From positions 31,081-95,080 of the forward strand of contig JBHLLO010000002.1 in NCBI GenBank assembly GCA_048885535.1: a stretch of 64,000 bases of DNA. The letters run 5' to 3'. A program made the translations under genes and the position numbers. Shown here piece by piece: positions 5,212-19,274 of this stretch. Numbering within the stretch: the stretch's first letter is position 1; each line of letters starts with the position of its first letter. The notes beneath the pieces were generated by a model. That model saw only the letters and a program-made list of their open reading frames with translations. It ran no database searches and had not been told where the DNA came from. This DNA is from Candidatus Hermodarchaeota archaeon (GTDB lineage: Archaea > Asgardarchaeota > Lokiarchaeia > Sigyniarchaeales > SOKP01).

Positions 5212-6312
5212 TTAATCATCACTCCCTATAATGATAGCTCTCTCATAATCTAGATTTAAAAGTTTAATATCTTTTTGGGATAGTTTAGAAATTTCATTAT
5301 TAATTTCAACCAATTTTTCTCGAAGAGATAATAAAGATTCTTGAATTTCGTCAACAATATTTTCCTCATTATATGAGACTTTTTCAATGAAGTTTAGATA
5401 ACTATGTTTCCTACCCTTACCAGTGTAAATTCTTTTGATATCTACTAGATTTTTCTCAATATCATTTAATTTAAAACTAAAATTTAGCAACTCAAGTAAA
5501 GTCGATTTCCATTGTAAAAATAATTCGTTTTCTGAATCTATTTTTTCAAAATTAAATTTTTCTGGGAGTGTAATTTTATGATCTTTGAGATAGTTAAAGA
5601 TTTCCATGCTTTCTTCTATTGCTTTATATATTTTAGTCAAAACGGTTTTACTATTTAATATGGGTTCGAAAATGCTTATAAGTTTAGTGGTTTTATCTTG
5701 AATTTCTTTAAATCTTTTGAAAAACCCCTCTATTGTCATTTCTATTTTTACAGCGTGATACACATTACCAAATTGATCTAAAATATAATATAAATCATCA
5801 GATAAAGCATAATCATGATCTCCGATTTCATATATTAAAGAATGGATAACATTGGTAGATTCGCATCTTACACTCTTTAATTTAGTAAGAGCTAAATTGA
5901 AATTTCTTCTTAATATCGATTTGAATTTTTTATTTAACATTAGAAAGAGAGTATCATCTGGCACAGATATTGCATTTTTTTCAACTGTAATTGTTTCTTC
6001 CCCTAATTTTATAATGAAATCATCTTCCTTTCTATCAAATTCTCTTAAGGTTCGAATATTTTTGAATAATCCTAAGTCAATTGCAATCTCAATAAATTCG
6101 TTTGACCAAAATTTTGTAATATTACTTTTATAAATGTCATCTAATATTAGTACCCTCTCATACGATTCTATACGACTTTTTTCTTTCAAATCTTTAAATA
6201 AATCATTCCTGATAACATAAAGAAACAATATGATATATCTCGTATCCAGATCGTCAAGGATTTTTTCAATTAAATTCCTATCGTGCTCTAATGATAAATC
6301 TCTATGTTCCAT
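5212..6312 (-). CDS. Hypothetical protein (366 aa; possible wHTH followed by coiled coil)
   Basis: Long ORF, first gene of the operon; heptad-rich C-terminus. Confidence 0.8.
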   Translation of the reverse strand: MEHRDLSLEHDRNLIEKILDDLDTRYIILFLYVIRNDLFKDLKEKSRIESYERVLILDDIYKSNITKFWSNEFIEIAIDLGLFKNIRTLREFDRKEDDFIIKLGEETITVEKNAISVPDDTLFLMLNKKFKSILRRNFNLALTKLKSVRCESTNVIHSLIYEIGDHDYALSDDLYYILDQFGNVYHAVKIEMTIEGFFKRFKEIQDKTTKLISIFEPILNSKTVLTKIYKAIEESMEIFNYLKDHKITLPEKFNFEKIDSENELFLQWKSTLLELLNFSFKLNDIEKNLVDIKRIYTGKGRKHSYLNFIEKVSYNEENIVDEIQESLLSLREKLVEINNEISKLSQKDIKLLNLDYERAIIIGSDD

Positions 6313-11336: not shown

Positions 11337-12410
11337 CTAAGGTTTATACCTCAAAATAGCTACTATATCACCTAAAGCAATAATTTGTTGACCAGTAGGT
11401 TGTTCACTACTCAAAATGTAATATTTCCCATCAGATTTTTCTATATCAGTTAAAATCTCTTCAATTTCAAGTTTTTTCTCTTTTGAGATACCACGTATTA
11501 AAATATCTGTAATAAATAATTCTTCTATCACTCCACTTTTGGATAAATTAGAGATCTCTTTCACTCCAATAGCAATTAAGTCTGGATCAGTTGCTAAAAT
11601 TGCAAAAATTTTCTCTATCTTATCTGTTTCTTGAAAAATTTTTACCTTTTCTTTTAAATTCTTTAATTGGGGAGATTTTAAGGTTTCAAATATTGCACTC
11701 TCAGTACCTGAGCTTGCATGAATAATATTAATTTTAGATAGATAATCCGGTTGTTTCTTGTCTTTAAGGTATTTTAGAAATTTGTCTTTAATATTTCCAG
11801 GACCACACAAGATAATTAGATTTATATTTATGTTTTTGACGTTTTCATCCAATACTTTATTAATATCACCAAAAAATTCTTCATATGCTTTATTTCGATG
11901 GATTTGTTCATATCTTTTTCCGGGAATTGTTTTTTTAATAGTGGCTATTCTTGTATGACTAAAGTTAGTGATAAGTGCAGCATTTGCTAATCCGCTTTCA
12001 ATTGCAATTATAAGTAGTACAAAATTAACATCAAATTTTGAAAATTCCGTTAATCTTTTTATCTCACTCCTTAACCACATCTCCTTTATAATACTTAATT
12101 CGTTACCCACTTCGATATTAAATGTATGATAAGTTCCGAAACTCACAAAATCTTCAGGACCTTCACTAATTGTACCTTTAACTCTTAATCTATTTGAAAA
12201 TTCATGGAATGAAACAGATTCTACCTTTAATTTTATCCACATTTTTTTTCGTTCTCCTTTTGTACCTTCCCTTAATACTACTCTTCTAGAAGTTCGCGTA
12301 GAAACATAATCATTCTTAGAAATAACATTATAAAGTGTCCATAAATCATTTAATGTTTCAATTTTAACAATGACTTCTTGATTTTTATTATCTATTTCAA
12401 GAATCTTCAA
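11337..12410 (-). CDS. pelota: mRNA surveillance / ribosome rescue protein pelota
   Basis: NDLWTLYNVI, FHEFSNRLRVKG, GTYHT, IPGKR and C-terminal AILRY; TTG start. Confidence 0.95.
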   Translation of the reverse strand: MKILEIDNKNQEVIVKIETLNDLWTLYNVISKNDYVSTRTSRRVVLREGTKGERKKMWIKLKVESVSFHEFSNRLRVKGTISEGPEDFVSFGTYHTFNIEVGNELSIIKEMWLRSEIKRLTEFSKFDVNFVLLIIAIESGLANAALITNFSHTRIATIKKTIPGKRYEQIHRNKAYEEFFGDINKVLDENVKNININLIILCGPGNIKDKFLKYLKDKKQPDYLSKINIIHASSGTESAIFETLKSPQLKNLKEKVKIFQETDKIEKIFAILATDPDLIAIGVKEISNLSKSGVIEELFITDILIRGISKEKKLEIEEILTDIEKSDGKYYILSSEQPTGQQIIALGDIVAILRYKP

Positions 12411-12542: not shown

Positions 12543-12695
12543 TTATTCTTTTTCTCCTAAGGCTTCCCTAATTTTTTCAAGTTCTTCCATTCTTTTCTTC
12601 TTTTCTTCTTCCCTTTTTCTCAGTTCTTCCACACTAACCTTTTGGAGAGTGACTCCCTTCTTAATCTCATCTTGTAACTCTTTATCAATTGGCAT
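12543..12695 (-). CDS. 50-aa microprotein with WH2/actobindin-like motif followed by a charged helix
   Basis: Manual translation MPIDKELQDEIKKGVTLQKVSVEELRKREEEKKKRMEELEKIREALGEKE*; SD-like AAAGGAG ~10 nt upstream; fills an otherwise empty 400-bp gap; below the ORF-track size cut-off. Confidence 0.8.
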   Translation of the reverse strand: MPIDKELQDEIKKGVTLQKVSVEELRKREEEKKKRMEELEKIREALGEKE

Positions 12696-12819: not shown

Positions 12820-13272
12820 TTAAAGAGTTATTTCCATTAAATAAGCACTTTCTCGATTACTATAATAATTTTCAATTTCTTGAACTATTTGGAAATTAAA
12901 TTTTTGATAAAGTCTTATTGCAATCCAATTTTTTTTATTAACAGTTAATATAATTTTCTTTATTTCTTGATATGCTTTGATTAGTTCTAATGCTGCTTGA
13001 AATAAGTATGAACCATAACCCTTATTTTGATAGGTTTTTTTTATTAAAAAGTTTATTATATTAACTCTATCTCTTCCGTCTCGAATAGCAATTATATAAC
13101 CAATGATATTAGAGCTGTTTTTGCTCAATAGCTTTAAAAATAAAGAATTTCGTAAAATCAATTTTGTCATAGTTTGTTTTGAAAATGAATCTTGTTTGAA
13201 TATCTGGTACTCCATTTTCATAATTTCCTTTAAATCATCTAAAACGACTCTCTTTATCTCCAAATTATTCAA
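12820..13272 (-). CDS. GNAT N-acetyltransferase, RimI/Ard1-like
   Basis: YQNKGYGSYL, LTVNKKNWIAIRLYQKFNF, YYSNRESAYLM. Confidence 0.9.
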   Translation of the reverse strand: MNNLEIKRVVLDDLKEIMKMEYQIFKQDSFSKQTMTKLILRNSLFLKLLSKNSSNIIGYIIAIRDGRDRVNIINFLIKKTYQNKGYGSYLFQAALELIKAYQEIKKIILTVNKKNWIAIRLYQKFNFQIVQEIENYYSNRESAYLMEITL

Positions 13273-17801: not shown

Positions 17802-19274
17802 ATGAATGTCAATAAAATTGATGACAATATATACGAGATAGCACCAACAACGTTAATGGCACGAGTAGAAGGGAGAATTGAGAAATTTCAGATGTATGTA
17901 CCAGTACATATTTATGCTAATGAATACATTCTCGAGAAAATCAAACTAGATAAAACTCTTGATCAAATTGCGAACGTAGCTTGTTTAAAAGGGGTTGAAA
18001 AACATGTAATCGCACTTTCAGACGCTCATCAAGGATATGGATTTTGCATTGGAGGTGTCGCAGGGACAGATGCTGAAATTGGTATGATATCCCCTGGAGG
18101 TGTTGGATATGATATTAATTGTGGAGTTAGATTATTGAGAACAAACTTAATGCTTTACGAGATAAATAATACTCTACCTAGTTTATTAAATACAATTTTT
18201 AAAAATATACCTTCGGGTTTGGGTTCAAAGGGGAAATTAAATATTAACTTTTCAGATCTAGATAATGTATTAAATACAGGAATGAATTGGACGTTAGAGA
18301 ATAACTATGCTATTGAAGAAGATCTCAAACATTGTGAAGAGAATGGTTGTTTGAAAGATGCGGATGCCAGTCTAGTTTCTCAAAAAGCTAAAGAAAGAGG
18401 TTTTAAGCAACTTGGATCCCTCGGAAGTGGTAATCACTTTCTTGAGATTCAGAAGGTTGATGAGATATATAATGAATCAATTGCAAAAAAGTTAGGAATA
18501 TATGAAATTAATCAAATAACAATTATGGTTCATACAGGATCTAGGGCTCTTGGGCATCAAGTGTGTACAGATTCTTTGCGGAACGTAGAACGTGCTATGA
18601 AAAAATACAAGGTTAGAGTTCCAGATCGGGAATTAGCTTGTGTTCCTGCAAATACTCCTGAAGCTCAGAATTACCTTAGCCAAATGGCTTGTGCAGCCAA
18701 TTTTGGATTTGCTAATCGTCAATTGATAACTCATTGGTTAAGAGAGTCTTTCCAACGACATTTTAATAAAAGTTTTAATGATTTAGATTTGCATTTGATA
18801 TATGGAGTTTGCCATAATATTCTAAAAGTTGAGGAACATGAAATAAATGGGAAAAAGGTGAAATTAAATGTACATCGTAAAGGCGCTACTAGAGCATTTC
18901 CACCGGGACATCCAGTACTTCCTCAAGAATACAAAGAGATTGGACAACCGGTATTAATTCCCGGTACAATGGGGAGCGCATCATATCTATGTGTTGGAAA
19001 GCCCAAATCGATGGAACTTTCATTTGGATCTACAGCTCATGGATCAGGAAGGGTTATGTCGAGATCTAAAGCAATAGCAAAATATAGGGGCTCGAATGTT
19101 AGAGAAGATCTAAGTAATAGAGGGATTTTAGTTAAAGCCGCATCAATGAAAGTCATTGCTGAAGAAGCTCCTGGAGCTTATAAAGATATTGATCAAGTTG
19201 TTCAAGTAAGCCATGATTTAGAAATTGTAGAAAAAGTTGTTAGATTAGTTCCTATAGGCGTTGTTAAGGGTTAA
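17802..19274 (+). CDS. rtcB: tRNA-splicing ligase RtcB
   Basis: DAHQGYGF, VGYDINCGVR, GSGNHFLE, HTGSR, HRKGATRA, HGSGR, EEAPGAYKD. Confidence 0.97.
   Translation: MNVNKIDDNIYEIAPTTLMARVEGRIEKFQMYVPVHIYANEYILEKIKLDKTLDQIANVACLKGVEKHVIALSDAHQGYGFCIGGVAGTDAEIGMISPGGVGYDINCGVRLLRTNLMLYEINNTLPSLLNTIFKNIPSGLGSKGKLNINFSDLDNVLNTGMNWTLENNYAIEEDLKHCEENGCLKDADASLVSQKAKERGFKQLGSLGSGNHFLEIQKVDEIYNESIAKKLGIYEINQITIMVHTGSRALGHQVCTDSLRNVERAMKKYKVRVPDRELACVPANTPEAQNYLSQMACAANFGFANRQLITHWLRESFQRHFNKSFNDLDLHLIYGVCHNILKVEEHEINGKKVKLNVHRKGATRAFPPGHPVLPQEYKEIGQPVLIPGTMGSASYLCVGKPKSMELSFGSTAHGSGRVMSRSKAIAKYRGSNVREDLSNRGILVKAASMKVIAEEAPGAYKDIDQVVQVSHDLEIVEKVVRLVPIGVVKG

Follow-up and report, generated by a model that had tools for sequence, protein, structure and literature searches.

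The 50-residue microprotein described here, encoded within a 64,000-nucleotide stretch of DNA (the window), is the product of a real gene under strong purifying selection. Its family is present in almost every genome searched from one order of Loki-type Asgard archaea, and the microprotein consists of one copy of a portable module of about 45 residues. The module is a candidate actin binder of the WH2/beta-thymosin-like kind, a reading to which we give a probability of about 0.45. This is the most likely reading because the conserved residues of the N-terminal half fall at WH2 contact positions, because the only solved relatives found through that half are WH2, and because the module is repeatedly joined, in rising copy number, to profilin, which holds actin monomers. 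As a possible new regulator of actin in archaea, the microprotein is a promising candidate, still unproven.

The gene lies on the minus strand, with its ATG at 12695-12693 and its stop codon at 12545-12543, and its 50 residues read MPIDKELQDEIKKGVTLQKVSVEELRKREEEKKKRMEELEKIREALGEKE. An earlier note on this DNA had proposed an open reading frame of 50 amino acids preceded by AAAGGAG and had given no strand; frame and element are both borne out, on the minus strand (Table 1). Of 44 orthologues, 38 have a purine-rich word (GGAG, GGTG, AGGA or GAGG) no more than 30 nt upstream, a raw count made without a chance control. The AT-rich, TATA-like words TTATAAATAAA and TTATAATAT also occur upstream, in DNA that is itself AT-rich, and the scan for sigma-70 promoters and intrinsic terminators uses bacterial models that are uninformative for an archaeon. 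The stretch was traced only in sediment DNA sequencing runs, with no RNA run listed. The earlier description of the gene as unannotated holds for the window and not elsewhere, as a collection of 5.8 billion proteins contains 202 homologues of 49-51 amino acids, the named ones entered as 'hypothetical protein' of Asgard MAGs.

Table 1. Features of the microprotein gene, its surroundings and the proteins that carry the module. Plain numbers are window positions; L, P and G numbers denote loci, proteins and genomes.
Feature	Position or identifier	Strand	Basis or detail
Microprotein CDS, 50 aa plus stop codon	12543..12695	(-)	Frame reading, selection, orthologues
Residues 5-13, KELQDEIKK, predicted short amphipathic helix with near-invariant L7 and I11	12657..12683	(-)	AlphaFold2, conservation
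Residues 14-21, GVTLQKVS, non-helical, with near-invariant L17 and K19	12633..12656	(-)	AlphaFold2, conservation
LQKV, LKKV-type motif in residues 14-21	12636-12647	(-)	HMMER alignment to N-WASP LKKV
Residues 22-48, predicted long charged helix	12552..12632	(-)	AlphaFold2, conservation
Shine-Dalgarno-like AAAGGAG	12712-12706	(-)	10 nt before microprotein ATG
GNAT acetyltransferase, upstream, 124-nt gap	12820..13272	(-)	Pfam Acetyltransf_1, E 4e-13
Pelota (eRF1 domains 1-3), downstream, 132-nt gap	11337..12410	(-)	Pfam eRF1_1/2/3
Elf1-like zinc-ribbon protein, extended to 193 aa	6505-7086	(+)	E 2e-18
RtcB	17802-19274	(+)	E 3e-168
366-aa protein	5212-6312	(-)	Weak COG3 N-terminal row below cut-off, E 9e-5
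ZPR1-adjacent loci	L028, L041, L042, L064		Genomes G050, G044, G055, G037
Array proteins	P0127, P0173; also L021, L022, L023		497 aa (P0127), 479 aa (P0173); L021, L022 and L023 in three genomes
Profilin-module fusion	L095		251 aa; 1 unit behind N-terminal profilin domain
Profilin-module fusion	P0174		302 aa; 2 units behind N-terminal profilin domain
Profilin-module fusion	P0161		387 aa; 4 units behind N-terminal profilin domain
LRR proteins with one module, then RHH or zinc ribbon	L036, L037, P0182, P0203		
RHH proteins with one or two modules	L040, P0198, P0201, P0206		

A protein search of 61 related genomes identified orthologues of 50-53 amino acids in 35 of the 36 other genomes of the genus, 61-94% identical among the matches listed, with one further match truncated at 34 residues. 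Selection was assessed on 33 orthologues over a gap-free core of 42 codons (528 pairs). Mean nucleotide identity is 72%, third positions are variable in 42 of 42 codons, and mean pS is 0.83 against a mean pN of 0.15. dS is finite in 130 of the 528 pairs, which have a median dN/dS of 0.10; neither alternative frame is open in any pair. The pattern L..[DE][IVL]..G..L.K[VT] matches once, in the microprotein frame, amongst the 18,887 open frames of at least 40 amino acids (1.83 million residues) in the whole genome, and residue-shuffled frames gave 0, 1, 0, 1 and 0 matches. A WH2-type motif by itself is at chance level in this genome, and the microprotein rises above chance because it is conserved, not because of the motif alone.

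Distribution was examined with a profile of eight diverse members, searched in six frames against 400 genomes of the phylum at E<=0.001. The profile matches 124 of the 134 other genomes of the window's family (f1) and all genomes of three other families of the same order (f2 14/14, f3 1/1, f4 4/4), so that 143 of the 153 other genomes of the order possess a match, against 1 of 246 (E 3.5e-4) in the rest of the phylum. On these counts the family is near-universal in the order and essentially unfound outside it with this query. Conservation of the frame, which the earlier note had singled out for a check in Asgard genomes, is evident within this order, with pN far below pS.

The AlphaFold2 model, based on an alignment of 44 sequences (mean pLDDT 88), predicts a helix, then an L-x-K-V stretch, then a second helix, just as the earlier note had read from the letters. 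The long charged helix is predicted at pLDDT 94; direct reading places in it an E/K/R run, RKREEEKKKR (residues 26-35), and a hydrophobic stripe of M36, L39, I42 and L46, as an ER/K single alpha-helix or a coiled coil might have. Across the 44 sequences the only invariant residues are E31, K34 and R35, all in this helix, and L7, I11, L17, K19, E38, L39, K41 and L46 are kept in at least 90%. In the N-terminal half the residues kept at that level are exactly L7, I11, L17 and K19, and the motif residues of the earlier reading are therefore not variable. The acidic E6 occupies the place of the first Leu in the WH2 'LL' pair. At V20 the alternatives are P, L and I, many members having Pro (LQKP, LAKP), and one genus replaces K19 with P (LSPV). 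Members from the second family read ...IEAMNKEKLKKV or ...IEEHDKSKMAKV, with the consensus IE(A/E)(M/H)(N/D)K(E/S)K(L/M)(K/A)KV, a segment which we take to resemble the central segment of beta-thymosin. Comparison of the 50-residue model with the PDB by Foldseek gave 0 matches at E<=10.

The likeness to WH2 is weak but repeatable at profile level. PF02205 (WH2), which the earlier note had named as a check, does not match the microprotein even at E<=10, nor anything in a six-frame search of its own genome; amongst the 44 family members none reaches the 23.1-bit gathering cut-off and two give a row at E<=10 (best E 0.025). Single-sequence Pfam rows are at noise level here, because 24 of the 44 members also weakly match DUF3006. 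PF01290 (thymosin) gave no row at E<=10 for the microprotein or among the families listed for the 8- and 44-member sets, 25 of 44 families in the latter case, and NCBIfam gave no match to the microprotein, an array or the profilin fusions. In profile searches of 177,635 distinct PDB sequences, the N-WASP tandem-WH2 chain 3m3n_W is the top match with the 8-sequence profile (E 0.002) and again with the 44-sequence profile (E 0.003). The N-terminal 27 residues alone place it first (E 0.026) among just three chains at E<=10, and at the level of sequence profiles N-WASP WH2 is the only solved-structure family found through this half. The HMMER alignment to the N-WASP repeats has L, I, G, L, K and V identical. 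The score of 3m3n_W, an engineered tandem chain, is the sum of three weak stretches of 5-8 bits each, and the single-WH2 chain 2vcp_D gives E 0.5 against the family profile. With the 44-sequence profile, the matches next below the WH2 chain are helical heterodimers of designed sequence and the coiled coil of a streptococcal M protein (7upo_B, E 0.03; 2xny_M, E 0.042).

A six-frame search of five related genomes with the Pfam WH2 model gave 10 matches at E<=10, three of which fall on module genes (the only match in G044, the best in G041 and one in G050); module genes make up far below a thousandth of the sequence searched. One array (E 0.072) and a fragment of an array (E 0.0055) have WH2 as their first-ranked Pfam row, the arrays reaching 13.2-16.8 bits against PF02205, below the 23.1-bit cut-off. 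Language-model features place the microprotein closest, among named ESM Atlas clusters, to one that is 52% PF01290 Thymosin (score 0.85), which is a lead only. The earlier reading of a WH2/actobindin-like protein is partly supported: it gains from the conserved gene, the architecture, the motif residues, the N-WASP match and the joining of the unit to Asgard profilin in relatives, and receives nothing from the PF02205 cut-off or from PF01290 rows.

A profile search of 1.84 billion representatives at E<=0.001 identified 83 proteins, which include microproteins, arrays and fused forms; about 14 further rows that matched only the E/K-rich stretch (profile positions 21-40) were taken as coiled-coil noise. 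Tandem arrays possess 9-10 units spaced 44-52 residues apart, the units often reading LLxEIxxxxxLKK[IV][DN]E, and the C-helix of one unit continues straight into the N-helix of the next. Exact look-up of three array proteins in the protein collection found none with the start codons chosen, the 497-residue array had no usable match in the ESM Atlas, and a profile search of the 5.8-billion collection for longer module proteins gave none at E<=0.001, which is weak evidence. The genome of the window has a single module gene, with no array or fused form at E<=0.1.

In a second group the module stands behind a profilin domain (Table 1). Pfam Profilin rows for these domains are sub-threshold (E 2e-4 to 1.5e-3; 19-22 bits against a cut-off of 25). 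The AlphaFold model of L095, with pLDDT of about 90 over residues 1-125, has as its best Foldseek match the Odin profilin 5zza_P (E 4e-10, TM 0.88, rmsd 1.4), and also matches Loki profilins 2 and 1 (5zzb and 5yee, E 1e-8 to 3e-9); all three are profilins solved in complex with actin. The search gave 65 matches at E<=0.001, and nearly all among the matches listed are profilins. Judged from the predicted model, the N-terminal domain of these fused relatives is a true Asgard profilin fold (PF00235). Other proteins join the module to LRR domains or to RHH (ribbon-helix-helix) domains, the latter of the NikA-like DNA-binding type.

Some further features of these proteins may be recorded. The profilin-module fusions L095, L096, L098, L099, P0161 and P0174 end in a conserved tail of about 50 residues, ...I(T/I)IK(T/S)(E/K)F.TDYIYDDFQLL(K/R)(V/I)K..IE.LI.K.FQ(I/V)H..., which no Pfam family matches. 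The same tail is found with one module and no profilin in P0181 (99 aa), and in P0196 (163 aa) behind a hydrophobic N-terminal stretch that is, by eye, a putative membrane anchor. The representative library also contains P0179, an eukaryote-looking protein of 762 aa with FHA, PP1-binding and two SAP domains, and with at least seven tandem repeats of TPLRNEIKAG(V/T)xL(R/K)x(V/T) that match the archaeal profile at E 6.5e-7 and Pfam WH2 at a sub-threshold E of 0.0021; they may be WH2 repeats that bind actin in a protein of nuclear type.

The genome of the window encodes two Lokiactins and two more distant actin-family proteins. The cleft segments of the Lokiactins are YASGRTTG and WIGGSILxSL..F..MW, which read like those of rabbit actin. 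A profilin-domain gene is located at L119:1091-1696 (-) on contig C22, with relatives L100-L118; genes of this type (about 200-230 aa) are present in 131 of the 134 other genomes of the family, a tally that includes longer forms. The forms of about 200 aa that were examined possess a Gly/Pro/Ser-rich linker followed by a conserved C-terminal extension, IDPQLKxEIxSFLEWIKDxxGLSGYINYYLQQNN...ELRQIFGV, the start of which is aligned by MAFFT with the first helix of the module. The second Lokiactin gene (L032:1471-2616, contig C58) is followed directly by a 400-aa open reading frame, L032:2668-3870 (+). Over roughly its first 135 residues this frame shares 45% identity (E 1e-34) with the profilin-family protein of 202 aa from the same genome, and a TrmB-type HTH (Pfam 4e-11) comes next; similar forms of 410-450 aa are found in many genomes of the family. 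The pairing of a profilin-like with a DNA-binding part beside an actin gene suggests a putative actin-sensing transcription regulator.

If the module binds actin, the helix with L7 and I11 would occupy the hydrophobic cleft that a Lokiactin monomer has at its barbed face, L17-x-K19-V would run along the actin surface like LKKT/V, and the conserved charged helix would extend up the monomer. On its own, the 50-residue protein would then retain or buffer monomeric actin; in relatives, several monomers would be gathered, or a filament lined, by the arrays and profilin fusions. Such tandem arrays and fusions offer a better route to multivalency than the hypothetical dimerisation by the E/K/R helix into a nucleator, which the earlier note had put forward as a possibility. 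The charged helix begins only 1-2 residues after L-x-K-V; thymosin beta-4 has a longer linker between motif and C-helix. Several points stand against actin binding, amongst them the Pfam scores below cut-off, the chance-level motif, the departures at E6, K19 and V20, and gene neighbours without actin links in the loci examined. In addition, the invariant residues lie in the charged helix, a helix absent from WH2, and some relatives join the module to LRR or RHH domains. The RHH objection is softened by the profilin-TrmB fusion beside a Lokiactin gene, which makes DNA-binding fusions of actin-binding parts unsurprising in this lineage.

The main rival to actin binding is a helix-loop-helix adaptor or oligomerisation module that makes no direct contact with actin. 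The charged helix would pair with itself or with another protein, G..L.K[VP]D would be a capped turn, and the profilin, LRR and RHH proteins would use the module as a tether or multimeriser. This explanation accounts for the invariant residues of the long helix better than actin binding does, and agrees with the hydrophobic stripe M36, L39, I42 and L46 and with the direct run of each array C-helix into the next unit. It also suits the helical heterodimers and the M-protein coiled coil that follow WH2 in the PDB searches, and the fusions to RHH domains, which are dimeric. From the residues themselves, ordinary helix capping might explain G14, D/S21-22 and E24-25. We nevertheless hold it somewhat less likely than actin binding, as the N-terminal half alone still ranks the WH2 chain first, a helix of nine residues keeps two exposed hydrophobic residues near-invariant, the one, two or four copies behind profilin resemble added binding sites, and the WH2 HMM falls on module genes in 3 of its 10 matches in the five related genomes.

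The gene neighbourhood bears on another explanation. Across three families, the genes for GNAT, microprotein, Pelota and radical SAM follow one another on one strand, even where Pelota identity is only 40-43%; Pelota adjoins in 42 of 50 orthologous loci and GNAT in 39 of 50. In four loci of the second family without Pelota adjacency, ZPR1 adjoins the microprotein gene on the opposite strand. Both Pelota and ZPR1 have EF1A as a partner, the former in archaea (aEF1-alpha) and the latter in eukaryotes (eEF1A), which may be coincidence. No actin, profilin or gelsolin gene stands beside microprotein or array genes in the loci examined. Such surroundings point towards a housekeeping function, perhaps one linked to translation, and are the chief positive evidence for the reading of the microprotein as a small translation or mRNA-surveillance factor, which might associate with the ribosome or with Pelota, aEF1-alpha or ZPR1; RtcB and Elf1 are also nearby in the window. 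Such a factor is improbable. Gaps of 124 and 132 nt separate the gene from its neighbours, ZPR1 is encoded on the other strand, and adjacency to Pelota is lost in 8 of the 50 loci. Nor was a translation domain found in the 10 longer proteins scanned among the 83 profile matches, and no Pfam or NCBIfam translation family matches the microprotein.

A small charged protein associated with nucleic acid or chromatin is more doubtful still and has very little probability. It would fit the fusions to RHH/NikA-like DNA-binding domains and the weak H-NS N-terminal rows obtained for 7 of the 44 members (best E 0.0033), but in those fusions the RHH domain itself provides DNA binding, and the net charge of the microprotein is about -1 (14 K/R against 15 D/E by direct count). 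The N-domain of H-NS is a coiled-coil dimeriser, and the part matched is thus not the one that binds DNA. Finally, a chance open frame in AT-rich spacer DNA, to which the shortness, the low-complexity E/K run and the chance-level motif might point, is refuted by conservation and has practically no probability, given its retention in 143 of the 153 other genomes of the order, pN of 0.15 against pS of 0.83 with every third position variable, and the 202 database homologues.

To return to actin binding, homology of the module to eukaryotic WH2 is unsupported by the sequences, and convergence would fit at least as well, because the one-order distribution and the sub-threshold scores suit it equally. 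Confinement to one order, though actin, profilin and gelsolin are Asgard-wide, argues against an ancestor shared with eukaryotic WH2. Published accounts of Asgard actin regulation, in the portions available, describe profilins and gelsolin/cofilin-like proteins. In those portions of the literature on Asgard WH2, thymosin and actin microproteins, no free-standing WH2- or thymosin-like protein was found, the only WH2-like element there being a four-residue gelsolin linker motif; no mention of WP_371806818, the accession of a 55-aa homologue, was found in the papers available. We tentatively suggest, at somewhat less than even odds for the whole of the proposal, that the module adds to the profilins and gelsolins of Asgard archaea a third kind of actin regulator, a monomer binder of WH2/thymosin type whose arrays and fusions would be primitive nucleators or filament rulers for Lokiactin, and that it already existed, or arose in parallel, in archaeal relatives of eukaryotes. 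In its boldest form, the eukaryotic WH2 and thymosin motifs would descend from such a module. The proposal bears on how Asgard actin filaments are initiated without formins or the Arp2/3 complex. If the 50-residue protein binds Lokiactin, WH2-type regulation would predate or parallel eukaryogenesis, and the arrays and profilin fusions would be candidate archaeal nucleators; if it does not, there is still a portable module whose single-unit form occurs in nearly every genome of an order and calls for an explanation.

Amongst the closest known systems is eukaryotic WH2 (PF02205; N-WASP, WAVE, WIP, Spire, Cordon-bleu, and bacterial VopL/VopF), which has the same short amphipathic helix, Gly and L-x-K-V; L, I, G, L, K and V of the module are identical to the N-WASP repeats. 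Both occur singly or in tandem arrays and are portable between domain contexts. The module departs from WH2 in that all 44 members fall below the Pfam cut-off, E6 stands in place of the first Leu, Pro is frequent at V20, and a conserved charged helix of 27 residues follows at once. The module is moreover archaeal and confined to one order, and its actin binding is putative. The beta-thymosins, with actobindin and ciboulot (PF01290), are stand-alone peptides comparable to the microprotein in size (about 50 residues) and in the order of its predicted elements, from N-helix through LKKT-like motif to C-helix. The microprotein differs from them in its linker of 1-2 residues, in a C-helix that is much longer (27 residues) and E/K/R-rich, and in giving no PF01290 row at E<=10 among the families listed. 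Leiomodin consists of an LRR domain with a C-terminal WH2, and the relatives L036, L037, P0182 and P0203 similarly carry LRR and then one module; unlike leiomodin, they continue into RHH or a zinc ribbon, with no tropomodulin-type elements seen.

Two further systems combine a WH2-like element with another actin-binding protein. Asgard two-domain gelsolins, in the portions of the reports available, carry a WH2-like linker motif (LRRV, LKHV, LVDV/LKDV) that contacts actin in crystal structures (PMC9433394, PMC7444086, bioRxiv 10.1101/2025.11.30.690169). That motif is four residues within a linker and has no WH2 helix of its own, whereas the microprotein is a free-standing module with its own gene. 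Profilin of Leishmania and Trypanosoma contains a WH2-like insertion, and both profilin and insertion aid actin binding according to the part of the report available (PMC10907219). As in these trypanosomatid proteins, profilin and a WH2-like element are joined in one polypeptide in the archaeal relatives, while the genome of the window keeps a separate gene; the trypanosomatid element is an internal insertion of about 20 residues, whereas the archaeal fusions possess one to four complete modules after the profilin domain.
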